This document shows positions 367 through 17,895 of a DNA stretch of 64,000 nt, piece by piece. A program made the position numbers and the translations under genes. The stretch's first letter is position 1, and every line of letters begins with the position of its first letter. Below the pieces are notes generated by a model. It did no database searches and was not told the DNA's origin. It was given only the letters and a program-made list of their open reading frames with translations. The DNA comes from Gemmatimonadota bacterium. GTDB taxonomy: Bacteria; Gemmatimonadota; Gemmatimonadetes; Gemmatimonadales; GWC2-71-9. The DNA lies in NCBI GenBank assembly GCA_036679605.1, contig JAZDCZ010000365.1:1-64000 (forward strand). The letters run 5' to 3'.

Positions 367-453
367 CTACTCCATGACACCTTCGCCGAGGCGGCGTTCG
401 ATCTTGTAGCGGTCGGCGAGGGCAGACTTGAGGCGATCGAACATGTCGAGCAT
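367..453 (-). pseudogene. Ser/Thr kinase N-terminal stub 1 (28 aa)
   Basis: MLDMFDRLKSALADRYKIERRLGEGVME* matches the start of the kinase at 11339 (MSDIFDRLKAALADRYSIEKEVGAGGM). Confidence 0.85.
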
Positions 454-521
454 GTAGAAAGAAAAGATGGGGTGTTTCTCGATTGTACGCGAGTCCGAAG
501 GCCACCTGTCACTAGACCAAG

Positions 522-622
522 GCTCGAATCAGGAGGTCGTACGGAGGTCCGCGACCCTTTCCGGATCTGTAGCAACCAGCGTCTCAACGACTTAGCAAAT
601 CGCTATTGAGGGCTGTTAATCC
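522..622 (+). repeat. att-like repeat R1
   Basis: GCTCGAATCAGGAGGTCGTACGGAGGTCCGCGACCCTTTCCGGATCTGTAGCAACCAGCGTCTCAACGACTTAGCAAATCGCTATTGAGGGCTGTTAATCC; a T-arm-like piece TCGGGTCGGGGGTT follows at 662-675. Confidence 0.9.
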
Positions 623-809
623 TAGGGTCTGCACGACGAGTGAGCGGAAGGATCCCACACATCGGGTCGGGGGTTGGAACTCCGCGCTTTGGATTGTGGG
701 GCTCTTATCGACAGACGCTCATCGGCATTTCATTCACTGCACGTCGTGACCTTGGGCTTGTGCGTCAAGTCCTTGAATAGCCGTTCGTTACCAACAACTG
801 CACCACCCA

Positions 810-1313
810 CTAACCGCCTTCCTTCATAAGGCCTTCGAGTCGTCCGAGGGTTCGGACAACACTCTCTAGTTCTCGCTTCAAGCCAGTCATTGCTTCGTCC
901 AGTCGGGCCAGACGGACCGCCAGTTCTTCCCGCGTCACCCCACCGGTAGCATACTCGACGATGTGCAACCCCTCCCCCGCTTGCATCCTCCCGAGCAGCG
1001 AGACCTGCTGCCCCTCTATCACAGTGATTCCCTGCTTGACTTCCGTAACCGCCCCGTCGGCCTCTAAGCGAACGTCGTACACGCCAGGCGTCACACTCCA
1101 AGTCAGGCCGTTGTTGATTGTCGTCTCGCTTTGCTGGACGATGGTGCCGTCCCGGAGCACTGTGACCATGATCGGTGTCCCCGCGAGAGCGTCGTAAGAG
1201 TCTCCCCCGGCGCCGAGGCGGATGTACACTTTGCCCTGCTGGGCAATTACAGGAACGGGATGCAAAAGTACAAGGCATACAACGAGCCCGGTGATAGTAC
1301 GAATCGGTGTCAT
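810..1313 (-). CDS. Secreted hypothetical protein (beta-sandwich/PEGA-like region plus C-terminal coiled coil)
   Basis: Signal peptide (LVVCLVLLHPVPVIA-QQ), PGVYDVRLE motif, heptad tail; GGAG RBS. Confidence 0.7.
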   Translation of the reverse strand: MTPIRTITGLVVCLVLLHPVPVIAQQGKVYIRLGAGGDSYDALAGTPIMVTVLRDGTIVQQSETTINNGLTWSVTPGVYDVRLEADGAVTEVKQGITVIEGQQVSLLGRMQAGEGLHIVEYATGGVTREELAVRLARLDEAMTGLKRELESVVRTLGRLEGLMKEGG

Positions 1314-1437
1314 GTCGCCCTCCAGGGAAAGGATTAGAGGATTGCTGTTCTTGGTTGTCCACCTTCGCCCCCAACTCCTACTCCCTCAAGCGTTCCTGCA
1401 ACAATCCCCACAACTTCAAGTATACGCTCCACGGCTC

Positions 1438-1573
1438 TTAACCCATAGCTGACCTTGCCCGCAGTCGTCCCACCAGTACCTTTTGCTCAGCCCTCATTCT
1501 CGACCGGCCAGAATCCGAGGAGAAGTACCTATGGATGATTGGTCCTTCTGTCCCAAGTGCGGCACCAAGTTCG
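1438..1573 (+). repeat. Duplicated promoter/5' block A (copy of 15479-15613)
   Basis: Near-identical from TTAACCCATAGCTGACC through GAGGAG RBS and codons MDDWSFCPKCGTKF. Confidence 0.95.
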
Positions 1574-4533
1574 ATCCCGAGGCTAAGCAGTGCTCCAATT
1601 GCGGCGCAGCAACGCCCAGCGCCACTACAGTTGCGTCGGGAGACATACCCTCTGCCACTGACAGCGACCTTGAGGCGCTAGAGAGCGAACTCCGCGAGGC
1701 GCTTGCGCCGGGCCTGCAATTGATCAACCGCTTGGGCCAAGGCGGCATGGGCACGGTGTTCCTGGCTCGTGATCCCGCACTCAAGCGGAACGTAGTGGTG
1801 AAGGTCTTGTCTCCCGAATTGGCCCACGATCCCACCGCTCGGGCTCGGTTTGCGCGGGAAGCCGAGTCAGCCGCAGCGGTGTCACATCCCAACGTGATCA
1901 ACGTGTATTCAGTGGGAGAGTTACCTCGGTCTGGTACCAGCTACTTCGTGATGCAGCATGTAGATGGACCGACGCTCGCTGAAGAGTTTCCAGAGGGAAC
2001 GGCCGTTCCCGAGACACAGGCCAAGAAGGTCATTGGTGAGGTGGCCTCGGCGTTAGCAGCGGCACATGCACGCGGCCTGGTACACAGAGACATCAAGCCG
2101 AACAACATCATGATCGAGCGCGATAGTGGCCGTGCTATCGTGCTCGACTTCGGCATTAGTGCGGCGATTACGCCTGAAGTTGGAGCGACGAGCACGAAGC
2201 TGACTGTGCAGGGCACGTCAATTGGTACTCCTCAGTACATGAGTCCGGAGCAGGCTGCTGGAGAAGAGGTCACTGGAGCAAGCGATGTTTACAGCCTTGG
2301 TCTCGTAGCATTTGAGTTGGTTGCTGGACGGCCTCCCTTTGATGAATCGAATGCAATCGCGCTTGTCGCGGCTCACATCAACAAGGAGCCGGCGGGCGTG
2401 TCGACTCTCCGGCCCGAATTGGATGCGCAGCTGGCTCGTCTCATCGATCAATGTCTCTCAAAGTCACCGCAAGAGCGTCCTACGACAGACGAACTGTCAC
2501 GTGCGTTGACGCCACCGACCCATGCGACCATCGAGTGGCCACCCCCAGGTCTCGAGAAACTGCGTATCAAGAGCGCGAAGTTCCTTGCAGCACTCTGGAT
2601 GACCGTGATTGTAGTGCTGGCCATCTCCACGCTAACCGCCCTTCAACCCATTTCGCTCTCACCGCAGTGGTACGGTGAAGAGGATCAGTTCTTCTGGAGA
2701 ATAGTCTCGGCCATTGGTGCATTCTCGACAACCGATGCCTCCGGAGTGATAGGACAGCTGTGGTTGATCTCGCTGTGGTCGAGCTGGCTCCTACTCGTGG
2801 CGATGGCAGCCGCTCTCTTGTTGAGAGGATCTGCATTCACTCGCTCGCTGACATGGTCGAGAAAGTCGGGATACTCATGGGCCGTGCTTGCAGATCTGGT
2901 AATTGACACTGGGGAAGACACCGAAGGCGTTCTGAATCGCTCTGGCCTGTTTGCCTCTCTTTCAACCGGCGAGGCGGACCGCTTCATCAAGCTTCGGCGC
3001 TGGGCTGGTTTCTCTAAATTGTTGGGACTGGGATTGGGGTTTCTAGCGCCTGCGCTGTGGCTTCTGGGATACATCGGCGGTTTGATGCCGCATGGGACGC
3101 GCATACTGCCATTGGTAGAGGCCGCGCTCGTGCTTGGGCCAACCCTCCTCATGCTGGCCTTGTCGGTCGCCCTGCGAACTCCCGAGCGGCTCCATCACCG
3201 GCGAATCGGCTCTCGCAGAAAGAAGGGCAAGTCTTTGGTCAGAAGGGAGCTAGTGGACACGTGGCTGGCATCTGTGGGGCGGCCACCACGTACGCGAGTA
3301 TCGGGATTAGCAACCTTCTTGACTGCGCCTATACCGTCGTTGTTGGCATCATCGGTCACTTTCTTGCTGCTGGTTCTCATTGTGGTTGGTTTGGCAGTCG
3401 CCGCCGTCCAGCAGAGTGGCCTTGGGGAGAACCGGAGTGTTGCTCAACAATGGCTCCGAATGCGCCGCGGGCAAATGCCGTGGTACCGGCTCGACTCGGC
3501 TGTACAGGCTGCAGCGCTGCCGGTAGGTGTGAATGATTCAGCTGCGTTTGTGACTATGACCACGGTTGCGTTGAGTGGGGTGCTGCGTGTGGACCCTCAG
3601 GGTAACAGAAAAGATGAGCGTGATCGAATCTGGGCGGTCGATGCCCGAACACAGGTGGCTCAGGAGGACAGGAAGTTGGTTGCCGATCCCGTTCTTGCAT
3701 CACTCTGGAAGAATGGACTGCGCGACATTCCGGACACGATGATGGCGTTGCTGGAACACGACACGACAACCCAGTGGTTGGAGCTCTTTCGCAGAGCCGC
3801 GCGGTCGACGGTACCGTCCCTGTGGCAATTGCGTGACGGATTTCCCGGCGGAACGGCGGGTGCTTGGTTGGTGCCTGCGACCGAAGCCAGAGGTTACAGG
3901 ACGGGGGTATACGACCTCGCGACGCGAAACGAAGAGGCTGCCCTGCTGCAACTCGCAGCAAGGGATTGGAAGACGGCCGAACTCAGAGCTAGGGAAATCA
4001 TATCTGTGGGCCGCCACTTCTTGATCGAGCCTCTGGAGTGGATGAGCTGGATCGGTGCGCGCTTGATTGTCCGCGGTGCCCGAGTGTTGTCTCGAGTCGG
4101 AGAGGCAAGCACTAATGCCACAATGGTCGCCGAGGGCGCTCGACTGGAGGAGCTGTTCGATACCGATGACGATGTTCGAGGACGAGGTCGTTGGTCGGGC
4201 ATGTGGGTTGGTGAAGGGTTTCTCGCTTCCCGAGCGGTCGGGCGGCTGCTAATGGTTGACCCGGTAGATCCTCCGGGACTTGCCGCAATCGCTGACCGCA
4301 GGTTAGCACCGTTCGTTCGCTGGGAACTCGTCCGGCTCAGCCTGATGGCGCACTGTGCCAACCCAAGGGAATACCGCTTCGGGATCGATCCACTCCGCCT
4401 CACAGTGCTTGACAGTGCAGTGGTCCTGGCGGCAGATATTCCCCGCGTGGCGGAGTTGGGAGAGATGCTTCATCGAGAGTACGAGCGAATCCTGGCGATG
4501 CCGTTCTTGGAGAGGTTCTCGGAGTTTTGCTAA
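1531..4533 (+). CDS. Ser/Thr protein kinase K1: zinc ribbon, Hanks kinase, multi-TM region, C-terminal domain
   Basis: CPKC..CSNC; GQGGMG, VVVK, HRDIKPNN, DFG, GTPQYMSPE; several hydrophobic helices; RBS GAGGAG supports ATG 1531. Confidence 0.93.
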   Translation: MDDWSFCPKCGTKFDPEAKQCSNCGAATPSATTVASGDIPSATDSDLEALESELREALAPGLQLINRLGQGGMGTVFLARDPALKRNVVVKVLSPELAHDPTARARFAREAESAAAVSHPNVINVYSVGELPRSGTSYFVMQHVDGPTLAEEFPEGTAVPETQAKKVIGEVASALAAAHARGLVHRDIKPNNIMIERDSGRAIVLDFGISAAITPEVGATSTKLTVQGTSIGTPQYMSPEQAAGEEVTGASDVYSLGLVAFELVAGRPPFDESNAIALVAAHINKEPAGVSTLRPELDAQLARLIDQCLSKSPQERPTTDELSRALTPPTHATIEWPPPGLEKLRIKSAKFLAALWMTVIVVLAISTLTALQPISLSPQWYGEEDQFFWRIVSAIGAFSTTDASGVIGQLWLISLWSSWLLLVAMAAALLLRGSAFTRSLTWSRKSGYSWAVLADLVIDTGEDTEGVLNRSGLFASLSTGEADRFIKLRRWAGFSKLLGLGLGFLAPALWLLGYIGGLMPHGTRILPLVEAALVLGPTLLMLALSVALRTPERLHHRRIGSRRKKGKSLVRRELVDTWLASVGRPPRTRVSGLATFLTAPIPSLLASSVTFLLLVLIVVGLAVAAVQQSGLGENRSVAQQWLRMRRGQMPWYRLDSAVQAAALPVGVNDSAAFVTMTTVALSGVLRVDPQGNRKDERDRIWAVDARTQVAQEDRKLVADPVLASLWKNGLRDIPDTMMALLEHDTTTQWLELFRRAARSTVPSLWQLRDGFPGGTAGAWLVPATEARGYRTGVYDLATRNEEAALLQLAARDWKTAELRAREIISVGRHFLIEPLEWMSWIGARLIVRGARVLSRVGEASTNATMVAEGARLEELFDTDDDVRGRGRWSGMWVGEGFLASRAVGRLLMVDPVDPPGLAAIADRRLAPFVRWELVRLSLMAHCANPREYRFGIDPLRLTVLDSAVVLAADIPRVAELGEMLHREYERILAMPFLERFSEFC

Positions 4534-4683: not shown

Positions 4684-4754
4684 AGGGAAGGCGTCTCGAC
4701 TCACTCTCCCTCAAGTCAACGCAACCTATCCTTTAAGCTCTGGAAGTGATCGCG

Positions 4755-5939
4755 ATGAAATTTCTACAATTGTCCATGGTGTTCCTGCTAACTCTGTGGG
4801 GCGTTCCGAGCTACGCACTCAGCCAGAATTCCACAGACGAGCTAATCAAGATTATCGAGGGCGTACAACACCCCGATAGGCAAGGACTTGATTCATATAC
4901 CCTCAATGAGCTGATGGATCGATTTGGGGTTCCTGGCGTCAGTATCGCAGTCATCAAGGACTTCAAAATTCACTGGGCGAAAGGGTATGGTATTGCCGAC
5001 GTGGAGACAGGTGCAAGAGTCGATACCGAGACATTATTTCAGGCCGCATCCATCAGCAAGCCTGTCAATGCGATGGCTGTGTTAAGAGCTGCCCAAGACG
5101 GCAAATTCTCTATGGATGACGATATCAACACCATTCTGAAATCGTGGAAATTGCCCGACAGCCCATTCACGAAAAATCAGTCTGTATCCCCCCGCATGCT
5201 GGCCAGCCATACTTCCGGCTTAGGCGATGGATTTGGTTTCCCGGGTTATGATCCGTCCGATCCTCGCCCAACAACGATCCAGATCCTCAATAACGATAAA
5301 CCTTCGAATGTCGGGCCGGTGTTGCTCGCAAGACCTCCTATGACCGCATTCCATTACTCAGGGGGCGGCGTGACGATTTTGCAGCTGGCACTGACCGATG
5401 TGATCGGCAGACCCTATCCAGAGATTCTTCAGGAATATGTATTGGGACCGGTTGGCATGACGCAAAGTACATTCGAGCAACCACTGTCTCCTGAACGTGA
5501 TAAGAATGCGGCTCGGGCTCACGGCGGCGGCGGCGAGGCAGGGGATGTAAAATGGCATGTCTACCCCGAACTTGCTGCCGCAGGATTATGGACCACGCCT
5601 ACGGATCTAGCAAAATTTGCGATTGAAGTGCAGAAGTCCCTACGAGGTGAAGCGAATAACGTGCTTTCACCGACGATGATCAAAGAGATGTTGAGCCCGG
5701 TCGGTGTCGGCGATTATGCCGTCGGCTTCTCAGTCACTAAGGAAGGTCAGGGATGGTACTTCGGCCATGGCGGCGGTAACTGGGGTTTCAGGTGTCTACT
5801 GGCAGCACACAAAGTAAAAGGCTACGGATTCGCTATTATGACGAACGCTCAAAACGGTGGCAACATAACGAATGAACTGAAGCGGCGTATTGAGCGAGCG
5901 TATGGCTATGATTCACTGGACAAGCCCGTCCGACGTTAG
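4755..5939 (+). CDS. Secreted serine hydrolase, beta-lactamase class C/AmpC-like family
   Basis: Signal peptide; FQAASISK (SxxK), FHYSGGG, FGHGGG. Confidence 0.9.
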   Translation: MKFLQLSMVFLLTLWGVPSYALSQNSTDELIKIIEGVQHPDRQGLDSYTLNELMDRFGVPGVSIAVIKDFKIHWAKGYGIADVETGARVDTETLFQAASISKPVNAMAVLRAAQDGKFSMDDDINTILKSWKLPDSPFTKNQSVSPRMLASHTSGLGDGFGFPGYDPSDPRPTTIQILNNDKPSNVGPVLLARPPMTAFHYSGGGVTILQLALTDVIGRPYPEILQEYVLGPVGMTQSTFEQPLSPERDKNAARAHGGGGEAGDVKWHVYPELAAAGLWTTPTDLAKFAIEVQKSLRGEANNVLSPTMIKEMLSPVGVGDYAVGFSVTKEGQGWYFGHGGGNWGFRCLLAAHKVKGYGFAIMTNAQNGGNITNELKRRIERAYGYDSLDKPVRR

Positions 5940-5971
5940 CCGTGCCGGGCTCTCGATGCCACAAAGCGGTA

Positions 5972-6086
5972 GTTCTTATCAGGAGGTCGTAAGGAGGTCC
6001 GCGACTCTTGCGGTGTCTGTAGCAACCAGCGTATCAACGACTTAGCAAGTCGCTATTGACGGCTGTTAACCGTCGGGTCGGGGGTT
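5972..6086 (+). repeat. att-like repeat R2 (most complete copy)
   Basis: GGAGGTC x2; TATCAACGACTTA (6032-6044) matches IHF consensus WATCARNNNNTTR; ends in a tRNA-like fragment. Confidence 0.9.
6058..6086 (+). pseudogene. tRNA-Asn(GTT) fragment: anticodon arm, variable loop, 5' T-stem
   Basis: GACGG-CTGTTAA-CCGTC perfect 5-bp stem with 7-nt loop, then GGGTC, then GGGGG-TT; no D-arm or acceptor stem. Confidence 0.7.
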
Positions 6087-6293
6087 GACCATCACGCGTC
6101 TTCGATCCGCTTGGCTGCGCCTGCGCGTCGAGTCCCTCCTCCGGAGTTCCGCAGAGTCCAAACGACTCCGCGTCACTCACGACGTAACTGACAGGAAACG
6201 CCATGCGGCAACCAAGGTCCGTCGCTAGGGAGACGACACCCCTCTTCACGAGAAACTTCTTAATGGTGTTAGTTGCCGGCGGCCAGCTACCGT

Positions 6294-8159
6294 TCACCCA
6301 AGCTCCGCTACAGCCCGAAGTGCCTGTTCTATGGCTGCTTGAGTGTAGGCGGAGGCAGCCGCATCGGAATTTGCGATGGTGATGTTTCCGATGGGTTGCC
6401 GCGCGATCTCATGCGGCGCCCTCCCCGGTTCCCATTCAGGGTCCCACAGCTCGAGATAATCGTAGGCGTATCCGTGCGGCCAGCGGTTGACGGTGATGGC
6501 CAGGATATCATCGGCCACATCGAAACCGCCAGGACCAAGCATACGGTCGAGCACCGTACGGACTTCGCGCTCGAAGTCCTCGAAGGTCAGGCCCAGCATG
6601 ATTCCCCTGGCCGCCCGAAGTTGATCGTGAATGGGAACGTCACGGCGCGGGGGAGCGATCGTGCCCCAGAACATGAGTGGCACCGGACCCGTGTCATTGT
6701 TGCTGGGTCGATACCCCGCCGTGTGTACCCCGTCGATCAACCAGACCTTGGCATGCATGCGGCCAGGGCAGTACGCACCCGAGATACCAAGTCGGTCGAG
6801 CGCTTCACGGCTTCGCACCAGGACATTGGTCAGCAGCATGGGATGCTTGACCTGATATCGTTGCGCCTCTTGCTGTGCCTCGGGCACTTCCGGACACAGG
6901 TGAGGAATGATCGCATGATAGCAGGCCAACACTGCGTGGTGGGCACGTACACGCACGACCGATCCATCCCGGACGTACGTCGCCGTGACCTCACCGTCGG
7001 CATTGGCGATATGCACGGCCGTGGATTCGAGACGCAGGCGAACCGGAGAGCTGGGGCGATCGAGTTGTGCATAGTCGAACCGCGCTACGGCGATGTTCTG
7101 CGAGTTGGCCGCTGGGGCAATGGCGGGAATGAGCGAGCGGACCAGCAGCCGAGCAATGGACGCGTTGCCATCGGGGAACATGGCCACGGCTTCGGATTCC
7201 TCCGAGCCCGCCACCCGATCGGCGGCGTCTCCCAGAAGATGCGATCCGGGCAACCATGCCTGCATGGCCTCGGCAGCCGAAAGGCTGTGGGTCTGCACGC
7301 CCCAGTACCCGTCCATTGCCTTGATGAACAGTTCGACGACGTCGTCGGGAAGGCCGGCGTGTACGGACAGGAACTCCGTGTAACTCGTCCCATGCAACAC
7401 GCGATCGATTTCCGACTCGTCCATCCCCTCCAGCACGGTTGCATCGGCGGCATAGAATCGCTTCAGCGCAGCACGTCCCGATTCGCTAATGGGAAACCGA
7501 TCGATGCTGTCTAGCGCGTCCAGGTTTCTGCTGTACATGGAGAATCCGGGCACCATGACATCGCGTCCGTACGTCTCGGCGTCGAACCAGATGGCCGGCT
7601 TGTCGGCGCCGTAATGGAACTCCAGCTCGCTGCTCAGGCGATGGACGTCGATACCCAGCTCTTCCAGAAACCCGAGGACGGTGTCACTGAACGAGAGGAA
7701 CTCCAGATTCATCGTCCCGCCCCACGATAGTCGCATGACACCGTCGTGATGAAACTCGTTGCGCTTGGCGTGGCCACCGAAGTCATCGTGATTGTCGAGG
7801 ATCAGGATGCGTGATTCCGACCCAAACCTCTTGCGATACTGATACGCCGCCGTCAGACCGCTGATGCCGGCGCCGACGACCACGAGGTCGTAGTGCTCGT
7901 CGAGGTCCACGGGATCGTCGAATCGGACACCCTCGCGAGCGAGGGCGTGGGCGGTTTCGAACGAACCCGGATGTGAGCCCCGCATTCCCGTCCTGGCGGG
8001 CGGGTAGTCCGCGCCTGGGGGCATCACGATGTGGCCCGGGGTCTTGCTCGAGCACCCCGAGGTAGCCATAAGGCCCAACGCGGCGAGCCCAGTGTCGTGA
8101 ATGAAGTCGCGACGGCTGATCTGTCGCTGCATGCCGAGTTCGCGATCCGATTTTCTCAC
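6294..8159 (-). CDS. Tat-exported FAD-dependent oxidoreductase, spermidine dehydrogenase SpdH-like
   Basis: SRRDFI Tat motif; YPPARTGMRGSHPGSFETAH; GAGISG; FGGHAKRNEF; NRWPHGYAY. Confidence 0.85.
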   Translation of the reverse strand: MRKSDRELGMQRQISRRDFIHDTGLAALGLMATSGCSSKTPGHIVMPPGADYPPARTGMRGSHPGSFETAHALAREGVRFDDPVDLDEHYDLVVVGAGISGLTAAYQYRKRFGSESRILILDNHDDFGGHAKRNEFHHDGVMRLSWGGTMNLEFLSFSDTVLGFLEELGIDVHRLSSELEFHYGADKPAIWFDAETYGRDVMVPGFSMYSRNLDALDSIDRFPISESGRAALKRFYAADATVLEGMDESEIDRVLHGTSYTEFLSVHAGLPDDVVELFIKAMDGYWGVQTHSLSAAEAMQAWLPGSHLLGDAADRVAGSEESEAVAMFPDGNASIARLLVRSLIPAIAPAANSQNIAVARFDYAQLDRPSSPVRLRLESTAVHIANADGEVTATYVRDGSVVRVRAHHAVLACYHAIIPHLCPEVPEAQQEAQRYQVKHPMLLTNVLVRSREALDRLGISGAYCPGRMHAKVWLIDGVHTAGYRPSNNDTGPVPLMFWGTIAPPRRDVPIHDQLRAARGIMLGLTFEDFEREVRTVLDRMLGPGGFDVADDILAITVNRWPHGYAYDYLELWDPEWEPGRAPHEIARQPIGNITIANSDAAASAYTQAAIEQALRAVAELG

Positions 8160-8266
8160 TGAGACTCCTCGTCAGGTACTGTCGCCATGCCGCCTTCGCC
8201 GAGTTCGCGCTTGATCTCGTATTTGTCAGCGAGGGCGGCTTTGAGACGGTCGACTTGATCGGTCAT
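8156..8266 (-). pseudogene. Ser/Thr kinase N-terminal stub 2 (36 aa); its stop overlaps the SpdH-like GTG start (GTGA)
   Basis: MTDQVDRLKAALADKYEIKRELGEGGMATVPDEESQ*; it and ~50 bp upstream match K3 (14186-14235). Confidence 0.9.
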
Positions 8267-8390: not shown

Positions 8391-11339
8391 CTACCGCCTT
8401 TCCCCTTTCAATCGTGCCAGCGCCCCACGTATTTCGTCCACTTCGGGTTGGACCGACGGTTCGGGGTCGCTCCGCAGTGCAAGATACTGAGAGTATGCAT
8501 CGATGGCCCGATCGCGGTCTCCCGCAAGTTCGGCGAGCCGACCGGATTCCCTTAGATGCGTGGCAAGAGGGAGCATATATCCCAAGTAGTATTCATGTCT
8601 GCCGGCTGCCGCGGACGCCCGGGCGTATGCCCCTTCGCCCTCGAGCAGACGGGCCAGGAAGAGATTCTCCCACCTAGGCCGGTAGGGTCTCGTCAGCAAC
8701 AATTCGTCTAGTCTGTCGATCAACTGGCCGGCATCGGCTTGACCGCGACGCTGTGCCAACGCGGCCTCTAGGAGATCGGCACAGACCATATCCCTCGCTG
8801 GGGGCCACGTAGGATCGCGATCGATATGACGGTCGCGAAGTTCTCGAGTAATGGGCGGAATGGCGTCAAACCGATTGTGTTCGAACTGCCACAACACCAT
8901 TGCACACAAATCACGCCCTCCGATGGTGGCTTCGCCAGAGGCCGCTACCTGTTCCTCTAACTCACGATACGCCCTGAATCCCTCCACCGAATCACCAGAC
9001 CGCAGCATCGATGAAAACAGCCATCCGGCCGGGCCGATGTTCCCACGCCGAGCTGCTTCGGCTGCTTCAACCGGTCGCCCAGCATCCCACGCCAAGAAGG
9101 CCTCCCGTGCTGACACTCTCTCTCGTCCTACTTCGCTGACCGTTACCCGGCGTAGCCGAGCCATGAACTCGCGAAAGTCCGAAATGTGGTTGACGGCAAA
9201 CGGCAACATGAGTGCGACGCCTTGGACAACCGGACGGTCGATGGTCCCGGTATCGAGGAGTGCAAGGGCCGCGTTTCGTAAGGCCGTGTCGCCCAACACC
9301 ACTCCAGCGAGCCAGCGTTCCGGAATCCCAGCAACGGGATCGCCGACCGCGGCGTCGTTGAGACGCATGTAGCGGCGAATGTCAGCCGTGTCTCCGCGGT
9401 TGACGGCAAGCAGAAAGAGGTGCTGCAGCGGACCGGCAACCGAGGAATCCCGTTCGACCGCCCGGGCGAAGGCGCGCTCGGCCCGGAGGAACGGGTCATC
9501 GACCCCCAGCAGGTTGCCGTCGTGCATGTAGCTGTCACCGAGAAAGTACCACGCCTCCGAGCGGTCCTCGGCAATCCTCACCGCCTCCTCTCGAGCTCGC
9601 AACAACGTGGCACCATTGTCCGGATCCGGTCCGTTGGTCCCCATTACCGCGGTCACGATGGCACGGTCCTTAGTTCCTAGGTCGTCTCTACCGCGCCAGG
9701 CTGCTCGTTGTCCGATGGCATAGACCCGACCCCCAGCTGTAGCGGACCAACCGTTCGCCTTCACCAACCCCACTCCCGCCAACGCGAAGTTGGTGTCCGT
9801 CTCCAGCGCCTCTGTAAACCGGTTCACGGCTTCCGAATACCGCGCACTGCGGTACTCGACCTGGCCACGGAGATAGGCCCGGAGCGCCGGAAGCGACGCG
9901 GTCAGATTCGCACTTTGCTCGGCGCCGATACCCGCTGTTCGCGCGAGAAGTTGTCCGACGAAGCGCGGCAATAGCGCGAGGGCGCTGTCCGCCGGTCCTT
10001 CGACGTTGGCCTGCACGGACGCGACTCGGCCGTCGACAGAGGCGAGTGACCCTCGCAGCACGAGCCGGGCATCGGATTCGACCACGGCCCCGGTGAGCAC
10101 GAGACCGGCACCGAGCGAACGCGCCAACTCGATCGCCTGCACTTCATCGAGATCTTCGCGGTCCGACGATACCTCACGCCGCCACGCGCTTATCACGGTA
10201 CCCGGGTCGGCCGACATCGGCGTCCCGCCTTCGCCGGTCAAGAACGTGGCCATGAGATCGACCATGCCCTCACGCAGGTCGGCCACCTGATCGGCCGAGC
10301 CAACCACCCGGAACGGGAGAACGACAACGAGGTTCTCGTCGAGCGCCGTCGCGCCACCCGTACGCCCGAGGGCAAACCATCCGATGAAGACCAAGGCAAC
10401 CGCGGCGACCGCCATCCCTGCCCGACGACCGAGCTTCGGACTCACCGCCGACACAGCACTCACGGGCCGAGTATCGGTCGGTGTCATGCCGACACTTGGC
10501 GTGGCAATCCCCTCGAGCCGCGTGAGTAACTCATCCGCGCTCTGCCACCGATCCGCCGCTTTCTTCTCCAAGCACCGCATCACGAGATCCGCCAAGGGTG
10601 CGGGAACCGTTGCTCGACGTGTCGTGACGGGCGTCGCCGGTTCGGTAACGTGAGCTGCGAGGATCTGTTGCGGGCTACTCCCCGTGAACGGCGGTGCGCC
10701 AGTCAGCATCTCATACGCCATCGCCCCAAAAGCGTAGATGTCCGCGCGATGATCGATGTGGGGGTCAGCAGAGGCTTGCTCCGGCGACATGTAGGACGGC
10801 GTTCCAAGAGCGACCCCTGCTGTCGTGATCGCGTGACGCCCGGTCGCCTCGCTTATCGCCTTAGCCACACCAAAGTCCGCGACGAGTGCGTGCCGATCGG
10901 CCAGCATCACGTTGTCGGGCTTGATGTCGCGGTGCACCACTCCTTGCGCGTGAGCCTTAGCGAGCGCGTCCGCGACTTCCTTGAGAATACGCACGGCATC
11001 GGAGATCGGTAACTCGCCTTCACGCGCCAATCGCTCACGCAACGATTCCCCCTCCACGTACGGCATCACATAGAACAGGAATCCGTCGGCTTCGCCGGAA
11101 TCGTAGAGCGGCAGAATGTGGGGATGCGTAAGGCCTGCCGCGATCTCGATCTCGCGCACGAACCGCTCCGGTCCGACGGTTTCACTCAGTTCAGCCCGCA
11201 ACACTTTCACGGCCACCTTGCGGTGGTGCTTCAAGTCTTCGGCGAGATAGACCGTGGCCATGCCACCCGCACCGACTTCCTTCTCTATGGAATAGCGGTC
11301 GGCGAGAGCTGCCTTGAGGCGATCGAAGATGTCGGACAT
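8391..11339 (-). CDS. Ser/Thr protein kinase K2: kinase, single TM, TolB-N-like domain, TPR-like helical region
   Basis: GAGGMATVY, VAVK, HRDIKPDN, DFG, GTPSYMSPE; TM AMAVAAVALVFIGWFAL; LVVVLPF. Confidence 0.93.
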   Translation of the reverse strand: MSDIFDRLKAALADRYSIEKEVGAGGMATVYLAEDLKHHRKVAVKVLRAELSETVGPERFVREIEIAAGLTHPHILPLYDSGEADGFLFYVMPYVEGESLRERLAREGELPISDAVRILKEVADALAKAHAQGVVHRDIKPDNVMLADRHALVADFGVAKAISEATGRHAITTAGVALGTPSYMSPEQASADPHIDHRADIYAFGAMAYEMLTGAPPFTGSSPQQILAAHVTEPATPVTTRRATVPAPLADLVMRCLEKKAADRWQSADELLTRLEGIATPSVGMTPTDTRPVSAVSAVSPKLGRRAGMAVAAVALVFIGWFALGRTGGATALDENLVVVLPFRVVGSADQVADLREGMVDLMATFLTGEGGTPMSADPGTVISAWRREVSSDREDLDEVQAIELARSLGAGLVLTGAVVESDARLVLRGSLASVDGRVASVQANVEGPADSALALLPRFVGQLLARTAGIGAEQSANLTASLPALRAYLRGQVEYRSARYSEAVNRFTEALETDTNFALAGVGLVKANGWSATAGGRVYAIGQRAAWRGRDDLGTKDRAIVTAVMGTNGPDPDNGATLLRAREEAVRIAEDRSEAWYFLGDSYMHDGNLLGVDDPFLRAERAFARAVERDSSVAGPLQHLFLLAVNRGDTADIRRYMRLNDAAVGDPVAGIPERWLAGVVLGDTALRNAALALLDTGTIDRPVVQGVALMLPFAVNHISDFREFMARLRRVTVSEVGRERVSAREAFLAWDAGRPVEAAEAARRGNIGPAGWLFSSMLRSGDSVEGFRAYRELEEQVAASGEATIGGRDLCAMVLWQFEHNRFDAIPPITRELRDRHIDRDPTWPPARDMVCADLLEAALAQRRGQADAGQLIDRLDELLLTRPYRPRWENLFLARLLEGEGAYARASAAAGRHEYYLGYMLPLATHLRESGRLAELAGDRDRAIDAYSQYLALRSDPEPSVQPEVDEIRGALARLKGERR

Positions 11340-11376
11340 GAGGGACAGCAATATAGGAGGCGCTCGCTCTTGGCGC

Positions 11377-11448
11377 GAGGTCGTACGGAGGTCTGCGACC
11401 CTTTCCGGATCTGTAGCAACCAGTGTCTCAACGACTTAGCAAGTCGGA
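11377..11448 (+). repeat. att-like repeat R4
   Basis: GAGGTCGTACGGAGGTCTGCGACCCTTTCCGGATCTGTAGCAACCAGTGTCTCAACGACTTAGCAAGTCGGA; abuts the hspQ stop. Confidence 0.9.
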
Positions 11449-11449
11449 T

Positions 11450-11752
11450 TCAACTCCAGAGCGAGTTGCTGTAGGTGCCCCCTCGAAACTGATCAAAGAA
11501 ATCGTCCACCTCCGGGTGTCTAATGGGTTCCCTGCTGACGTCTGGTTCGAGATGCCGTTCAGCCACGTACGTTCGGTGCGATGTCCCATGGACGAGTACG
11601 TGATACCAAGGCTTGTCTTTGGGTGGACGGGATCGAGCGACCTCATCGTACCACTCGTCCGACCCTATGAAGGTTTCGTCCACTCCTGTGATCACACCTC
11701 TGTAGTCAAACTTCCGATGATGAACCGTTTGCCCGATGGTGAACGTGCCCAT
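11450..11752 (-). CDS. hspQ: Heat shock protein HspQ (YccV-like)
   Basis: FTIGQTVHHRKFDYRGVI..VD, PWYHVLV, TYVAERHLE, HP motifs. Confidence 0.88.
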   Translation of the reverse strand: MGTFTIGQTVHHRKFDYRGVITGVDETFIGSDEWYDEVARSRPPKDKPWYHVLVHGTSHRTYVAERHLEPDVSREPIRHPEVDDFFDQFRGGTYSNSLWS

Positions 11753-11795
11753 CAAAGCCTCACGATCTGGCACCGAGTTCCCCGATTGCACCCGA

Positions 11796-14186
11796 TCATT
11801 GGTTCACCGCCGCCAACCCGACGCGTTCGCGAAGTGCCTGGAACCGTGGGTCGTCGTGCAATCGATATAAGAGGGGGTTGTGGGTCAACTCGCCGACGAC
11901 CGAACGGTCACGAACGTCGACGGCGCGCTCCAACAACGCGAACGCTGAGTCTGGGTTCCCCATGGCGAATTGGCCCATTGCCATCGTCGAAAACCACGGA
12001 GGATCACTCTGCCGCGCGACTTCTTCCAGTTGACGGTAGGCCGCGGTCGCCTCCTCCGGACGGTTGGCGCCCGCGAAGATCATCACGCGTTGGTTCCAAT
12101 CCCATGCAGTACGCACCCCTCCCGCGAGTGTCTCCGACAAGTTCTGTTCCTCCTCGGCCTCCGGGTACCGCCCCTGGAAGGTATAGGTCCACGATAGCAG
12201 GGAATGGGCCTCCCAAAAAGACGGATCCAGTTCGATCGAGCGTCGGCCCGCTGCGATAGCCGGTTCGTATTGTTCGGCGGCAGCCAGCCACCAGCCTAGG
12301 TCGCTGTGCCATTGCGCCGTCGAGGGCTCGAGATCGATGGCCTTCTGTACCGTTGCGATCGCCGAATCGATGCGGCCCATGTCGGCAAGAAACAAGGCGT
12401 ACCGTGAGTACTGGTTTGCGTATGGCGCCAGTTCCAACCCGCGCAGGAACGATCGTTCGGCGGCTTCGAACTCCCAGTCGATGTAGTACTCCTTGAAGCC
12501 CCGGGTCACGTACGCCACCCCAAGTTGGTTGTCGATCGCAAGCGCCGCGTTAACCGCGCGATCGATGAGTGCGCTCGCCGAATCGGCGCCAATCCATCCG
12601 TAAAAGAGCATGGTCTCGTACGCGAGGGCCACCCCCTCATAGGCTGCGGCGAGCGTCGAGTCCCGTGCGATCGCTCGATTGAAATGATCCAAACCTCTTC
12701 TGACACCATCCTTGGTCCATCGTAGCGTCTGTTGTCTCCCCAAGAGCAATTGAGCGTATGCCTCCTGATCAACCTGGCGGGTGTCTGCGAGTCTTGCCTC
12801 CTGCTCGGGAGTAATCTCCTGTTGAATCTGTTCCGCCATCTCCCGCGCGATAGCGTTCTGGAGAGTCATGACATCCACGGCACGTTCATCGTAGGTCTTG
12901 GACCAGAGGTTCTCCTGTGACTGCGGCTCCATGAGTTCAATCGCGAGGCGCACGCGATCCGACGCTACCAACAGTCGACCAAACACCAGAGCGTCAACGT
13001 TCAGTTCATTCGCAATCTCTCTAGGCGACAGGTCAGTATCGCGGTATTTCGCCACTGCACGGGCGCCTACAATGCGTACACCCATGTTCGTGAGCACGCT
13101 AATGATGTCGTAGGTTATCCCCTCCGCGTAGAAGTTCTGCGTCGAATCACCGGTAGCATTCTCGAGTGGCAACACTGCGATCCGCTCGATCGCTGATGAT
13201 CCTCCGCCGCCGCGCATGGCCCACCATCCAAAGAGGGCGACACCTATCAAGACGGTCGCGACCCCGTACGTCCGAAGTGATTGTGTTATCGGTGCGTGCG
13301 CCGCCGTCACTGGCCGCGTGTCCGTCGGCGTCATCCCAACGCTCGGCGTCGTCATCGTCTCGAACTGCTGTGCCAGCTCGTCCGCGCTCTGCCAACGATC
13401 TGCGGGCTTCTTCTCGAGGCACCGCATGATGAGCGCTGCAAGCACGGGAGGTATGGCCGGTCGGTATTCCGAGACCTGCACTGGCGTCTCCGTCACGTGC
13501 GCAGACAGAACCATCTGTGCCGTATGCCCGTCGAACGGCGTTCGCCCGGCTACCATTTCGTATGCCATGGCGCCTAGCGCGTAGATGTCCGACCGATGAT
13601 CGATGTTTGGGTCCGCGGTAGCTTGTTCAGGTGACATGTAGGACGGTGTCCCTAGTGCAATCCCCGCGGTCGTCAGCTTCTCCTGTCCCGTGGCTTCGCT
13701 CACCGCCTTCGCAACACCAAAATCAGTCACCACCGCGTGACGCCCAGACAGCATGACGTTGTCGGGCTTGATGTCTCGGTGCACGATGCCCTCGCCGTGC
13801 GCAAAGGCGAGCGCGTCGGCCACACCGCGCAGGATCCGCACGGCCTCGGCGATGGGCAGTTCGTGTTCCCGATCCAGCCGGTCACGCAGTGATTCGCCCT
13901 TGATGTAGGGCATGACATACCAGAGAAAACCGTCCGTCTCGCCCGAATCGTAGAGCGGGACGATGTGCGGATGCTGGAGACCAGCCGCCATCTTGATCTC
14001 GCGCAGGAAACGATCGCTCCCGATGTGCATCGCCAGGTCGGGACGTAGCACCTTGACCGCCACCTGGCGGTCGTGCTTGACGTCGTGCGCGAGGTATACG
14101 GTCGCCATGCCGCCGGCACCCAACTCTTCCTGGATGGCGTAGTGGTCGGCGAGGGCGATTTTGAGACGGTCGACTTGATCGGACAT
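11796..14186 (-). CDS. Ser/Thr protein kinase K3: kinase, TM, TolB-N-like domain, TPRs
   Basis: All Hanks motifs; IAVLPLEN; EAYAQLLLG; TPR repeats; DPRFQAL C-terminus. Confidence 0.93.
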   Translation of the reverse strand: MSDQVDRLKIALADHYAIQEELGAGGMATVYLAHDVKHDRQVAVKVLRPDLAMHIGSDRFLREIKMAAGLQHPHIVPLYDSGETDGFLWYVMPYIKGESLRDRLDREHELPIAEAVRILRGVADALAFAHGEGIVHRDIKPDNVMLSGRHAVVTDFGVAKAVSEATGQEKLTTAGIALGTPSYMSPEQATADPNIDHRSDIYALGAMAYEMVAGRTPFDGHTAQMVLSAHVTETPVQVSEYRPAIPPVLAALIMRCLEKKPADRWQSADELAQQFETMTTPSVGMTPTDTRPVTAAHAPITQSLRTYGVATVLIGVALFGWWAMRGGGGSSAIERIAVLPLENATGDSTQNFYAEGITYDIISVLTNMGVRIVGARAVAKYRDTDLSPREIANELNVDALVFGRLLVASDRVRLAIELMEPQSQENLWSKTYDERAVDVMTLQNAIAREMAEQIQQEITPEQEARLADTRQVDQEAYAQLLLGRQQTLRWTKDGVRRGLDHFNRAIARDSTLAAAYEGVALAYETMLFYGWIGADSASALIDRAVNAALAIDNQLGVAYVTRGFKEYYIDWEFEAAERSFLRGLELAPYANQYSRYALFLADMGRIDSAIATVQKAIDLEPSTAQWHSDLGWWLAAAEQYEPAIAAGRRSIELDPSFWEAHSLLSWTYTFQGRYPEAEEEQNLSETLAGGVRTAWDWNQRVMIFAGANRPEEATAAYRQLEEVARQSDPPWFSTMAMGQFAMGNPDSAFALLERAVDVRDRSVVGELTHNPLLYRLHDDPRFQALRERVGLAAVNQ

Positions 14187-14377: not shown

Positions 14378-15232
14378 TCAAGGGTCCCTCACCACTAGAG
14401 TGCCGCTATCTGTCGACGTGACATTGTTGTTCGCAGGTTTATGGAGTATTGGGACTGGCTCAATGCCAAGAGTGCATGAATACACGTACGTGCCCGCAGG
14501 AGGGGAGGACAACTCGATCAGTTTCTCGCTGCCCGGCAGCACTTTGACATCGATACCCAGCTCTTCAATTGTGAAGGTGTGCACGGTGAGGTCACGGTTC
14601 TTGATAACGAACTTGGCAGACTTGCCGACCGGCACCGTCAGTTGAGCGGGCCAGAAAGCGCTACTCTTGATATCAACAGTGATTGCCGCCGCTTTCTCTT
14701 CAGGGCTCACCGTTTCAAGGCTAGTGAGGTGGAGTGTGCCCGAGACGACCATGAGACCGATCACTATCCCCGTTGTCGCCCAGAGAACCCACCGCTCGCG
14801 CGCCGTGGAGACGTTGCGGGTGGTGCCCCTACGGTGCTGTTGGAAGGCCACGATACCTGCGACCGCCGCCACCGTCGGTGCCCCAATCAAGGGGATCAAC
14901 AGGCCGGTGTCGAAAAAGCTGTTGACGTTGCCCAAGGCGGTTGGGATGAACTGGGCATTTAGCAGCGTCATCAGTATCGCCCAGATCGCTGCGACGAGCG
15001 TCCCAGGTCTCCGCCAGGCCTGGACGACGACGAGGAGCGTCGGCACCAAGAACAGGGTGTACATGGCCAACCCTTCCAGCACCCCCATCATTTCCACACC
15101 GCCCGAGACCATGGTTAAGATGCCGAGACCCGAATAGATCAGGGTAAAGACGAGCAGCCCCGCGATTGTTACTCGCGTGTAGAAGGGCAGGCCCTTCCAT
15201 CTCCGTTTATCCTGTGCGTCCTCGTCCATCAT
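14378..15232 (-). CDS. Membrane protein (about 5 TM) with C-terminal cupredoxin-like domain
   Basis: GAGGAGG RBS before ATG 15232; FWPAQLTV, NRDLTVHTFTI, GTYVYSC. Confidence 0.8.
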   Translation of the reverse strand: MMDEDAQDKRRWKGLPFYTRVTIAGLLVFTLIYSGLGILTMVSGGVEMMGVLEGLAMYTLFLVPTLLVVVQAWRRPGTLVAAIWAILMTLLNAQFIPTALGNVNSFFDTGLLIPLIGAPTVAAVAGIVAFQQHRRGTTRNVSTARERWVLWATTGIVIGLMVVSGTLHLTSLETVSPEEKAAAITVDIKSSAFWPAQLTVPVGKSAKFVIKNRDLTVHTFTIEELGIDVKVLPGSEKLIELSSPPAGTYVYSCTLGIEPVPILHKPANNNVTSTDSGTLVVRDP

Positions 15233-15478
15233 CGTTCCTCCTCGATCCACAGATCCTCCATGTGCCGGCTCGGGATGGCCCGGAATGCGAGAGCGACAGT
15301 GTGATTTAGTGTGCGAGATGTCATTCTCTTGCCAGACATCAGGGTACCATGACGGCACTCTGGGGGGCCCATGATTGCCTCCGTTGCAACGGTTTCTAGC
15401 TTGGGGTCGGGGGCCGCGTGACTTTCAGCGCATGAGGGGGGTGGCCAATATGGGGTACGGCGGCGCAGTTAGCTAGAG

Positions 15479-15613
15479 TTAACCCATAGCTGACCTTGCC
15501 CGCAGTCGTCCCACCCGTACCTTGTGCGTATCCTCATTGCCGACCGGCCAGCATCCGAGGAGAAGTACCTATGGATGATTGGTCGTTCTGTCCCAAGTGC
15601 GGCACCAAGTTCG
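15479..15613 (+). repeat. Duplicated block B: promoter, RBS and first 14 codons of K1 (stub ORF 15571-15669)
   Basis: MDDWSFCPKCGTKF, then unrelated residues to TGA; precedes K4. Confidence 0.95.
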
Positions 15614-15702
15614 CAGAGAGAAAGAGAATACCCCGAGCAGCGTTCGGGGGTTCGGGTTCCTCTGTTTGACGCCGCCGAACCGGGCGGCATATTCGCTAGG
15701 TC

Positions 15703-17835
15703 ATGACCGCACCTGACCGTATCTGCACATCCTGCGATGCTAGAGTGGCTGCCGATGCCGCGTTCTGCCCAAAGTGCGGCAGTCAAGTAGCGGCGGGAGT
15801 TCCTGCAACCTCCGACCCCCTCTTGGCTGCCCTGGAACGTGCGGTGGGCTCACAGTACGAGATCACCAGACTCTTGGGTCGAGGCGGCATGGGATCGGTG
15901 TATCTGGCGCGTGAGACCGCGCTGGACAGGCTCGTTGCCATCAAGGTGCTGACCCCTGAAGGAGCAGACGCCGAGAGCTACGAGCGGTTTCGCCGGGAGG
16001 CGAAGACCGCCGCCAGGCTAACCCACCCCAATATCGTGCCGCTCTACACGTTCGGCGAAGCCCAAGGCGTAATGTACTTCGTCATGGGCTACGTGAGTGG
16101 TGAGTCATTGGGTGCCAGGCTCAAGCGGATGGGGAAGACCGATCCGAATGAAGCGCGTCGCATTATCGCCGATATAGCGGCGGCGTTGCATTACGCGCAT
16201 CAGCAGGGAGTGGTGCATCGTGACATCAAGCCCGACAACATCCTGATCGACGATGACAGTAACAAGCCGATGCTCACGGACTTTGGCGTCGCTAAGACTC
16301 TCGCACGCGGTGAGACGTTGACGCAGATCGGTGCCACACTCGGCACGCCACATTACATGTCACCCGAACAGGCCGCCGGTGACCGCGAGATCGACGGCAG
16401 GAGCGATCTCTACTCGCTGGGCGTCGTAGGCTATCAGATGTTGTCGGGGCGGCTGCCGTTTGAGGGTGACAGCGTGCGCGACGTACTGGTACAACACGTA
16501 ACGAAGGAACCAGTTCCTATCGGCGTGTTGGATCCTACGGTCCCGGAAGACCTGGCCCGTGTGATCGACCAGTGCATGGCCAAGGACAGCGACGAAAGGA
16601 TGAGTGACGGCGAGGCCGTGCATACTGCACTCGGCGTGCAAAAGGGCGCGCACGACTTGATACCGGCAGACATGGAAGACAGTGTACAAACGTTGAGGCT
16701 TCTCGGCTGGCTGAGTGGAGGTTTGCTCACTCTGTCGAACAACATGTTCACCGCCTGGATGTGGGGCCGCGTAGCGAGTGATGCTTGGTCAGGAGCGTGG
16801 TTGGCATTGGGTGGAATTGGGTTGTTTGCCGTCCCGGCGTTGACGATGCGGTGGACTAAGAAATTCGGCCGGCACTCCTGGCGGGATATTTTAAAGTGGG
16901 TGTTTCGGCAGCCCGCCCGTTGGACCATGTGGTGGCCGCGTCCATTCAGGCGTCAGGACGACATGTGGGATCGGCTTCCCAAGCCGGTCAAGCGCGGTCG
17001 TGTCGCGCAGGGTTGGCTTGCCGGGTCCGGTAGCCTGTTCGTCGCCACGGTCCCCGGCTTTTTTTGGCTAGTCGTTTCATCGGATTGGGTGTTTTATCCT
17101 GAAAATGCGATGATCGCTCTCATGGTGGTGTTGGGGGGCACAATCGGTTGGCCAATGCTTGAGGCGGTACGTATTGATCGCTGGGCCAAGCGGATCGGAC
17201 TGCCCAAAGCGATCAGGAAAAAGTTGTGGTCGGCTCCGACCGCCGATGTTGACTTTTGGACCAAGCCTCCCCTGAACCAGTTTCTGCGTGGCGGATCGAT
17301 CCAGGGGAAGCTCGCTGGTGAGAGCTTGCCACAAACGCCTCCTGCCTACCTGCAAGCCATCGAGAACGCAGTTATCGAGCTAGATGGTGCTCCGAAACAA
17401 ATAACTAGAGATGCTGCGGCAGTGGGCCGCGAGTTGCTCGGTCACATCGAGAGACTGGATGAGCAGATCCGCAGTCTCGGTGAAGAGACCGATCCGGGCG
17501 AGGTCGCTCAACTAGAACAGAAGCTGATGGCACTGGGTGACCCGTCCGACTCGGAGAGCAATTCCCAAACCCGCAAGCGGGAGTTGTTGGCAGAGCAGCT
17601 GGAGCTTGCCCGGCGCATGATCACCCAGTTTGAGAGCGCTAAGGAACGCCGCGATCGCCTGCTTGAGATGCTCAAGACCGTATGGCGGCAAGTCTCGAAC
17701 CTCAAAGCCCAAGCTGCGGACCCCACCTTCGATGGGCGTGAGGTCAGTGCCAAGGTGCGTGCGATCTCGGACGACATGCGGCGGTATCAGGAGGCGTCTG
17801 ATGAGACGATCCAGATCGTCGATGAGAACACATAG
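15703..17835 (+). CDS. Ser/Thr protein kinase K4: zinc ribbon, kinase, about 4 TM, coiled coil
   Basis: CTSC..CPKC; GRGGMG, VAIK, HRDIKPDN, DFG, GTPHYMSPE. Confidence 0.93.
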   Translation: MTAPDRICTSCDARVAADAAFCPKCGSQVAAGVPATSDPLLAALERAVGSQYEITRLLGRGGMGSVYLARETALDRLVAIKVLTPEGADAESYERFRREAKTAARLTHPNIVPLYTFGEAQGVMYFVMGYVSGESLGARLKRMGKTDPNEARRIIADIAAALHYAHQQGVVHRDIKPDNILIDDDSNKPMLTDFGVAKTLARGETLTQIGATLGTPHYMSPEQAAGDREIDGRSDLYSLGVVGYQMLSGRLPFEGDSVRDVLVQHVTKEPVPIGVLDPTVPEDLARVIDQCMAKDSDERMSDGEAVHTALGVQKGAHDLIPADMEDSVQTLRLLGWLSGGLLTLSNNMFTAWMWGRVASDAWSGAWLALGGIGLFAVPALTMRWTKKFGRHSWRDILKWVFRQPARWTMWWPRPFRRQDDMWDRLPKPVKRGRVAQGWLAGSGSLFVATVPGFFWLVVSSDWVFYPENAMIALMVVLGGTIGWPMLEAVRIDRWAKRIGLPKAIRKKLWSAPTADVDFWTKPPLNQFLRGGSIQGKLAGESLPQTPPAYLQAIENAVIELDGAPKQITRDAAAVGRELLGHIERLDEQIRSLGEETDPGEVAQLEQKLMALGDPSDSESNSQTRKRELLAEQLELARRMITQFESAKERRDRLLEMLKTVWRQVSNLKAQAADPTFDGREVSAKVRAISDDMRRYQEASDETIQIVDENT

Positions 17836-17895
17836 AGTCTGAGTTGACTATTGGTCACCCGAAGAACTCTCTCAGGGCTCCACCTGCTGGTCTCG

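Follow-up and report, generated by a model that had tools for sequence, protein, structure and literature searches.

A tRNA-Asn-anchored repeat zone among Ser/Thr kinase genes of a Gemmatimonadota metagenome bin, apparently a decayed composite island

The first 64 kb of contig C296, hereafter the window, belong to a metagenome bin of a Gemmatimonadota bacterium (genome G000; 434 contigs, 6.72 Mb) and carry, at their left end, an array of Ser/Thr kinases and other genes punctuated by co-oriented copies of a repeat that is in part derived from tRNA-Asn. On balance, we regard this region as a decayed, composite tRNA-Asn island zone, the junction of which appears to have been multiplied by past integration together with local duplication or conversion, and not as an active integron-like platform. 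Both the origin of the junction by integration and the manner of its multiplication are what we infer from the layout of the locus. An earlier reading of the window (the original prediction) had proposed that the repeats delimit small modules stacked at a tRNA-Asn site by an integrase acting in trans.

Repeat copies are named by their start positions (522, 5972, 8334, 11377 and 14254, of which 8334 is partial), and a further copy lies on contig C334. Within the window, the repeat search revealed four plus-strand copies of ~102 nt at 528-629, 5978-6079, 11372-11473 and 14260-14361, and a partial copy of 26 nt at 8326-8351 (+); the intervals between consecutive copies are 5450, 2362, ~3040 and ~2880 nt. 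An nhmmer search of the complete 6.72-Mb assembly with a profile of the repeat detected five full copies (E-values of 4e-45 to 1.5e-35), four in the window at 507-659, 5955-6097, 11353-11503 and 14238-14391, and one at C334:79186-79338. The next-best match in the whole assembly had an E-value of only 0.99, and the repeat is restricted to one locus; it is real, well beyond chance expectation, local and co-oriented, as originally predicted, and not scattered over the genome. The copies in the window have the following structure:

507..675, + strand, repeat copy 1: core at ~529-607, then an eroded tRNA-Asn anticodon arm (608-629), 32 inserted nt, and tRNA-Asn nt 42-55 in exact form (662-675; nhmmer E 4e-45)
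5955..6182, + strand, repeat copy 2, resembling an attR junction: core as far as 6057; tRNA-Asn nt 27-55 (6058-6086) and nt 55-73 (6128-6146), both exact, on either side of a 41-nt insert in the T-loop (6087-6127); then a diverged copy of the trailer hairpin as far as 6182
8156..8351, the 5' stub of a kinase on the - strand (8156-8266), with its leader and, on the + strand, the leftmost 26 nt of the core (8326-8351), by translation and alignment
11353..11503, + strand, repeat copy 3: core only, without tRNA part, the similarity ending at 11446-11448; it overlaps the HspQ stop codon
14238..14391, + strand, repeat copy 4: core and an eroded anticodon-arm-like piece

Multiple alignment defined a conserved core of ~95 nt, hereafter the arm, which begins near a TGYCAC motif, ends with CTTAGCAAGTCG and contains two direct GGAGGTC heptamers 11 nt apart; arm identity between copies is 75-96%. 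The tRNA-derived portion is the right-hand part of the repeat only. It begins at tRNA-Asn nt 27, on the 5' side of the anticodon stem, which Williams is said to have described in 2002 as a usual place of the identity block in tRNA-integrating elements. The 5972 copy shows 29/29 and 19/19 identities to tRNA-Asn nt 27-55 and 55-73, in the same orientation as the tRNA; the alignment of its trailer covers 57 nt at 80.7%, and all 11 differing columns lie outside the tRNA part. Copies 522 and C334 possess an eroded anticodon arm and exact nt 42-55, and copy 14254 an eroded anticodon arm only. The original description of the repeats as tRNA-derived holds for the part from nt 27 onwards and finds no support for the left arm; copies 11377 and 8334 have no tRNA part. 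A derivation of the arm from a decayed tRNA-Asn 5' half was rejected, shuffled sequences reaching the observed score in 156-1446 of 2000 trials. Comparison of the arm and leader with all 95 tRNAs was likewise not significant, the best results (3-5/100 shuffles) being confined to single copies and not repeated across copies.

An intact, plus-strand tRNA-Asn(GTT) gene had been predicted to lie to the left of the window. ARAGORN located one at C334:76706-76779 (+), 2.4 kb left of the C334 repeat copy, and C334 is joined to the window by a gene split by an insertion sequence (IS). No tRNA was found by this program in the array, and none in contig L013. Domain and family assignments, here and below, were obtained from Pfam, NCBIfam and PDB searches. 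The features relevant to the contig link and to the stretch between the tRNA and copy 5972 are:

1..198, no strand assigned, right end of a multi-copy IS (rve-type transposase), with an inverted-repeat end near 191
199..347, - strand, ~50 N-terminal codons of a gene for an HExxH membrane protein ('M50-like') that the IS interrupts; the remainder is at C334:79408-80121
4746..5939, + strand, beta-lactamase-fold serine hydrolase (PF00144, E 6e-51), ending 16 nt before repeat copy 2

The first 198 nucleotides of the window match contigs C243, C18, C26, C294 and C83 at 91-98%. C334 terminates in the left part of this IS, oriented likewise; the terminal inverted repeats of the IS were read, and the cut transposase at the C334 end matches PF13683. 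The IS is ~1.6 kb long (window 1-198 plus C334:80130-80544) and causes the contig break, and at least five further copies break other contigs. P0002, an intact 268 amino acid homologue of the HExxH protein from another sample, corresponds in residues 1-51 to window 199-347 (90%) and in residues 49-268 to C334:79408-80121 (75%). Since P0002 matches both sides of the IS, these are the pieces of one split gene, and the order is C334, the IS of ~1.6 kb, C296.

The name M50, originally given to this fragment, is without a family match: neither Pfam (E up to 10) nor NCBIfam yielded one for the HExxH protein pieces. The protein is found in one of 90 family genomes, at 28% identity. Its gene has a GC content of 0.48-0.50 and that of the serine hydrolase, which falls below every NCBIfam class C cut-off, 0.519; the other array genes are typical, the genome averaging 0.582+-0.024 in 2-kb windows. 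Both low-GC genes lie between the intact tRNA-Asn and the exact tRNA repeat at 5972, a stretch of ~10.8 kb including the IS.

The following scheme would account for the region. A variable zone would be anchored at tRNA-Asn(GTT), with the window holding its right-hand part, and would be limited by the C334 genes on the left and by Wza-UvrA on the right. The repeat would be an attR-type junction, in which the non-tRNA arm is followed by tRNA-Asn from nt 27 on, and such a junction would have been made by one or more site-specific integrations into the anticodon arm of the tRNA. The 5972 copy would be the best-preserved junction, closing an island that starts at the intact tRNA and holds the low-GC genes. 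The other copies may be older or secondary, arising from earlier integrations, segmental duplication, or recombination with adjoining kinase 5' ends, and deletions and the IS insertion would later have eroded them. There is no indication of a dedicated cassette platform in current operation, and any present-day shuffling would most simply be homologous recombination between direct repeats. In favour of serial integration speak the intact tRNA, the shared direction of the copies, a tRNA part that opens at a canonical identity-block position, the exact copy beside low-GC genes, the conserved arm, and the comparable scars at tRNA-Met and tRNA-Lys.

Several observations weigh against this scheme. 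The genome contains 35 PF00589 (tyrosine recombinase) and 6 PF00239 (serine recombinase) matches, and on C334, C296, C87 and C169 none of either kind was found (0/35 and 0/6), all of them being on other contigs. The window indeed encodes no integrase, as originally noted; the tyrosine integrase that had been expected to the left is absent from C334. With no linked recombinase, it is from anatomy alone that we infer integration. Preservation of the tRNA part does not track position in the array: this part is perfect in copy 5972, whereas in copies 522 and C334, nearer the tRNA, it is eroded. The arms retain their high identity although the kinases behind them are only ~69% identical at the nucleotide level and far older. 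The low-GC HExxH-protein gene is bracketed by two repeat copies, which gives it a cassette-like look. Lastly, a 28-mer of the arm occurs exactly in one unrelated 1.7-kb metagenome contig, with weaker similarity around it and in another gene context, a match which hints at function or mobility.

The repeat core was not found in 60 relatives searched with BLAST or in 400 genomes of the class searched with a 28-mer (up to 3 mismatches), and two patterns failed to find it in the genome collection. In sister genome G001, of the same genus, the adjacent gene, UvrA (83% identity) and Wza are retained, and Wza is directly followed, on the same strand, by tRNA-Asn at a contig end (window 17836-18531 compared with G001:C76:12336-13112). 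Accordingly, G000 carries its tRNA and array in inverted orientation with respect to Wza-UvrA. A tRNA-fragment scar is present at the upstream synteny break, C334:76566-76620. A synteny drawn through G001:C30 was discarded, this being a paralogous region.

Contig C35 of G001 contains one homologue of the right end of the core, joined to a degenerate tRNA-Asn fragment with a ~40-nt T-loop insert. Near this junction lies a fragment of the methyltransferase found next after tRNA-Asn in G000. The joining of arm and tRNA must therefore be older than the divergence of these two species. In the portion of G001 covered, the junction is single-copy.

Of the other explanations, pure local duplication survives best, and we consider it rather unlikely. 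It supposes that a kinase 5' region, its upstream sequence and a dead tRNA-Asn fragment were copied by unequal crossing-over or gene conversion, with no serial integration. The kinase features on which it bears are:

367..453, - strand, kinase 5' stub of 28 codons plus stop, like the kinase N-termini at 8185-8282, 11258-11355 and 14105-14202
1528..4533, + strand, Zn-ribbon Ser/Thr kinase 1 (Pfam), with a ZnKin2-like 3' relic at 4600-4683
8391..11339, - strand, Ser/Thr kinase of 982 aa (Pkinase, E 7e-50)
11796..14186, - strand, Ser/Thr kinase of 796 aa with TPR repeats (Pkinase)
15703..17835, + strand, Zn-ribbon Ser/Thr kinase 2 (Pkinase)

All four leftward kinase starts originally reported (453, 8266, 11339 and 14186) exist, and those at 453 and 8266 begin only stubs, the second (8156-8266) comprising 36 codons plus stop. 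Duplication is favoured by similarity that is collinear from kinase through arm: 13307-14336 and 10460-11448 are 68.7% identical over 1038 nt, and 14097-14271 and 8177-8351 are 79% identical. It is also favoured by the Zn-ribbon kinases, which show the same mosaic without a tRNA piece. These two share 92.6% identity over their 5' 136 nt (1438-1573 vs 15479-15613) and 89% over 84 nt at the 3' end (4600-4683 vs 17757-17840), and their middle parts are diverged or unrelated, a pattern which points to mosaic recombination among paralogues. The stretch 4600-4683 is a non-coding relic of the C-terminus of the other Zn-ribbon kinase gene, and a third Zn-ribbon paralogue, on C87, is 86.6% identical to 1528-2552.

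A leader-plus-stub module provides a further argument for duplication. It consists of a 37-nt leader, GCTGGCCACCTGAGCTTCGGCACTGCATCTTAGCCCC, an ATG and the first 9-28 kinase codons, and is present in 17 copies genome-wide, only three of which are followed by a kinase domain; the 5' edge is sharp and the 3' breakpoints vary. G001 likewise has its own kinase 5' fragment repeats. The copies of the module in G000 are on contigs C419, C426, C265, C214, C311, C58, C87, C88, C212 and C355; several run into unrelated open reading frames with signal peptides, and two copies occur in G001 (C54). The window stubs at 367-453 and 8156-8266 are diverged relatives of the module and share the proximal motif of its leader. 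It might be a promoter/start unit that can be carried from gene to gene, or else one end of an element not yet recognised.

Four facts tell against duplication as the whole explanation. The copies at 5972 and on C334 have no adjoining kinase; the tRNA part of the 5972 copy is exact (48/48) although the trailer behind it has diverged; the interval from the tRNA to this copy includes low-GC genes; and the arms are much younger than the kinases. G000 has at least 104 tblastn matches to the kinase domain that are 200 aa or longer, often in tandem arrays. A phylogeny of 44 kinase domains does not group the 982-aa kinase with the 796-aa kinase as its sister. The terminal branches of the two are 0.20 and 0.27, and in the same tree G000-G001 orthologue pairs sum to ~0.07-0.19. 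The leftward kinases of the window are thus, to judge from this phylogeny, ancient paralogues, much older than the G000/G001 species split. The arms upstream of them are ~89% identical, and other arm pairs reach 96%. With kinases older than arms, co-duplication followed by neutral decay fails, and recent copying, gene conversion or selection is needed. The original view of the kinases as diversifying cargo must be replaced by one of old resident paralogues, their stubs belonging to a genome-wide family.

Unlikely, in our judgement, is the reading closest to the original prediction, namely that non-autonomous cassettes were stacked at tRNA-Asn by a recombinase encoded elsewhere and are still movable, the repeat being the recombination site. 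It draws on the intact tRNA-Asn at the left end, on the direct orientation of the copies, and on the contrast between a conserved arm and the varied, partly low-GC content of the intervals. The GGAGGTC heptamers are candidate arm-type binding sites, and the tyrosine and serine recombinases found elsewhere in the genome could act in trans. Islands without integration modules have moreover been described (PMC3146451).

Against such cassettes stand, besides the lack of a recombinase on the four contigs, the boundaries of the repeat itself. Among the partial copies there are three different break points: after the first GGAGGTCG (8334), after CGCGACC (contig L013) and before TCAAC (G001). Boundaries and truncation points vary among copies, with no fixed crossover point visible, and no conserved right (second) arm was seen in the copy alignments. 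Similarity between copies is patchy, extending into kinase coding sequence in four of six, with differing right-hand end points. Two copies have no tRNA part, the tRNA parts are out of array order, and the arm was not found in the relatives, class genomes or genome collection searched. Small cargo modules, as originally envisaged, are also disfavoured by HspQ, which is single-copy in G000 (one match on tblastn of the genome) and also present in G001. The proposed stacking at tRNA-Asn is in accord with the atypical GC content of the genes nearest the tRNA, two genes being low in GC and the rest typical. The assembled (Logan) contigs of public runs showed no joint at a repeat boundary in this region, contig data being uninformative on excision either way; the joints listed in them are cross-matches of paralogous kinases, at ~100x depth vs ~16x for G000.

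We attach even less probability to the arm being a working recombination site for a recombinase encoded elsewhere, by which single genes or pairs of genes, bringing no integrase of their own, would be taken up at tRNA-Asn, stacked there and reshuffled. The candidate cargo, to be held with the same reserve, would be the low-GC HExxH gene between its two copies, or kinase-plus-partner units.

A selected cis-regulatory role, in which a regulator binding at the GGAGGTC repeats or a structured leader RNA controls the leftward genes, seems very improbable. Of the six copies, four do precede a leftward kinase start, conservation is higher in the arm than in the adjoining coding sequence, and the exact 28-nt match in the unrelated metagenome contig would suit a function. 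The distance from arm to ATG, however, differs by ~40 nt between the 11377 and 14254 copies, two copies have no gene at all to the left on the leftward strand, and the arm was found upstream of none of the genome's other kinases. A likely promoter motif, CTTCGGC..CATCTT, common to the genome-wide leader, is situated between the arm and the ATG. No Rfam match to the repeats was found at E up to 10, nor any on contig L013. No convincing common structure emerged when both strands were folded, as consensus or as single sequences, and the consensus folds contained 0 and 3 compensatory pairs out of 29. A promoter/terminator scan returned 4 promoter-like sites where 5.6 were expected, and none on the repeats.

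A miniature inverted-repeat or other small non-autonomous transposon was rejected, the copies being in one locus only with boundaries that vary by copy, as was a known structured RNA, no curated Rfam covariance model matching the repeats. The arm is not recognisable as coding sequence, its variable columns being distributed 5/8/8 by codon position with no third-position excess. Homology of the left arm to the 3' end of a G001 radical-SAM-like gene was suggestive and not significant (87-447/1000 shuffles). A weak nhmmer match near an integrase on C250 was ascribed to chance, lying inside a signal-peptide coding region.

The remaining genes of the array and its right flank are:

810..1313, - strand, 167-aa protein, weakly similar to CarboxypepD_reg (E 8e-4, under the Pfam cut-off)
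6294..8159, - strand, SpdH-like flavoprotein (spermidine dehydrogenase; PDB 7d9i, E 1e-123 over the full length; Pfam NAD_binding_8)
11450..11791, - strand, HspQ (YccV-like; TIGR02097, 100.7 bits vs a cut-off of 38)
14378..15358, - strand, membrane cupredoxin-domain protein (PF13473)
17896..18531, Wza, adjoined by Zn-ribbon kinase 2
18548..21376, UvrA, after Wza

The array consists of units holding between one and three genes, which lie on both strands and have promoters of their own, and includes four Pkinase proteins. The originally listed serine hydrolase, SpdH-like enzyme, HspQ, cupredoxin protein and four kinases were all recovered. No homologue of the cupredoxin protein was found in 40 relatives. 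A weak sX2-like match at 7202-7306 (-), within the SpdH-like coding region, was all that an Rfam scan of window 1-20000 returned; it scored 27.6 bits against a gathering score of 40 and is probably due to chance. The G000 assembly, at 6.7 Mb, exceeds the 2-5.5 Mb of the family genomes searched.

Scars parallel to those of tRNA-Asn are present at tRNA-Met and tRNA-Lys of G000. Dead 3' fragments of all three tRNAs carry an insert of 41-90 nt at the same T-loop position, after GGGTT. The sites are window 6087-6127, C334:27021 and 76566, C87 (two copies) and, in the sister genome, G001:C35; the inserts share end sequences, and the intact tRNAs are without one. The parallel tRNA-Met locus is divided between C169, with the intact tRNA-Met at 55366-55440, and C87 (reverse strand). 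It comprises the tRNA, a Zn-ribbon kinase, a kinase stub before a DUF2306 gene and two direct repeats of the tRNA-Met 3' half (97.9%), and ends in the same IS as that at the window start; no integrase is present there.

If the region is an ordinary decayed island zone, it is an example of how tRNA-anchored zones age, their junctions copied, eroded and invaded by IS, and of an island zone entangled with a very large, recombining Ser/Thr kinase family. Recognition of such repeats would be of use in the annotation of metagenome bins, where they break contigs. If the sites were active, accretion and cis-mobilization would be extended to an uncultured sediment lineage with signalling genes as cargo. 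True cassettes would amount to a chromosomal platform using a tRNA gene as its att site, in a lineage whose genome is crowded with over 100 Ser/Thr kinases. The leader-plus-stub module, found before unrelated genes, and the T-loop insert common to three tRNAs may merit attention of their own.

As far as its sequence allows a comparison, the locus fits tRNA-anchored tandem-accretion (CIME-like) islands in its intact tRNA and far-end direct repeat, and departs from them in having no integrase. Integrons are co-oriented arrays of units, each ending in a repeat, with diverse content; they differ from this array, which has no intI (no tyrosine recombinase being found on its contigs), no attI and no attC-type hairpins. 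In the Streptococcus ICESt1-type elements, Pavlovic and colleagues reportedly described in 2004 cis-mobilizable, non-autonomous att-flanked segments that can be moved by the integrase of a neighbouring element. In those cases an integrase-bearing integrative and conjugative element reportedly adjoins the segment; none adjoins here.

The original prediction knew of no described system of this kind. Tandem tRNA- or tmRNA-anchored islands, including ones without an integrase, have in fact been published (PMC3146451; bioRxiv 10.1101/2020.12.28.424599). The tycheposons of Prochlorococcus integrate at tRNA genes, and successive integrations push older elements deeper into the island (bioRxiv 10.1101/2020.12.28.424599). 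According to the same report, the islands contain scattered degenerate remnants and partial tRNAs, the elements carry tyrosine recombinases, and excision was shown by PCR. The degenerate remnants and partial tRNAs at a tRNA site are common to tycheposons and the present locus; the latter differs in having no tyrosine recombinase on its contigs and, in the assembled sequence, no sign of excision.

The ssrA islands of Dehalococcoides lie in tandem downstream of ssrA between direct repeats of its 3' part (PMC3146451). A short conserved motif occurs just upstream of each repeat, and paralogous rdhA genes are the cargo. The same report describes 16 islands with a serine-recombinase module next to attL, and 15 without an integration module that are discussed as possible cis-mobilizable elements and in terms of accretion; the 20-bp repeat is uniform and occurs at 28-40 sites in many strains. 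Unlike these islands, the G000 locus has no linked recombinase, an exact tRNA part in one copy only and variable boundaries, and is represented by one genome. It resembles them in its tandem repeats with a tRNA-like 3' part, in the conserved arm upstream of that part, and in an expanded paralogous family as content.

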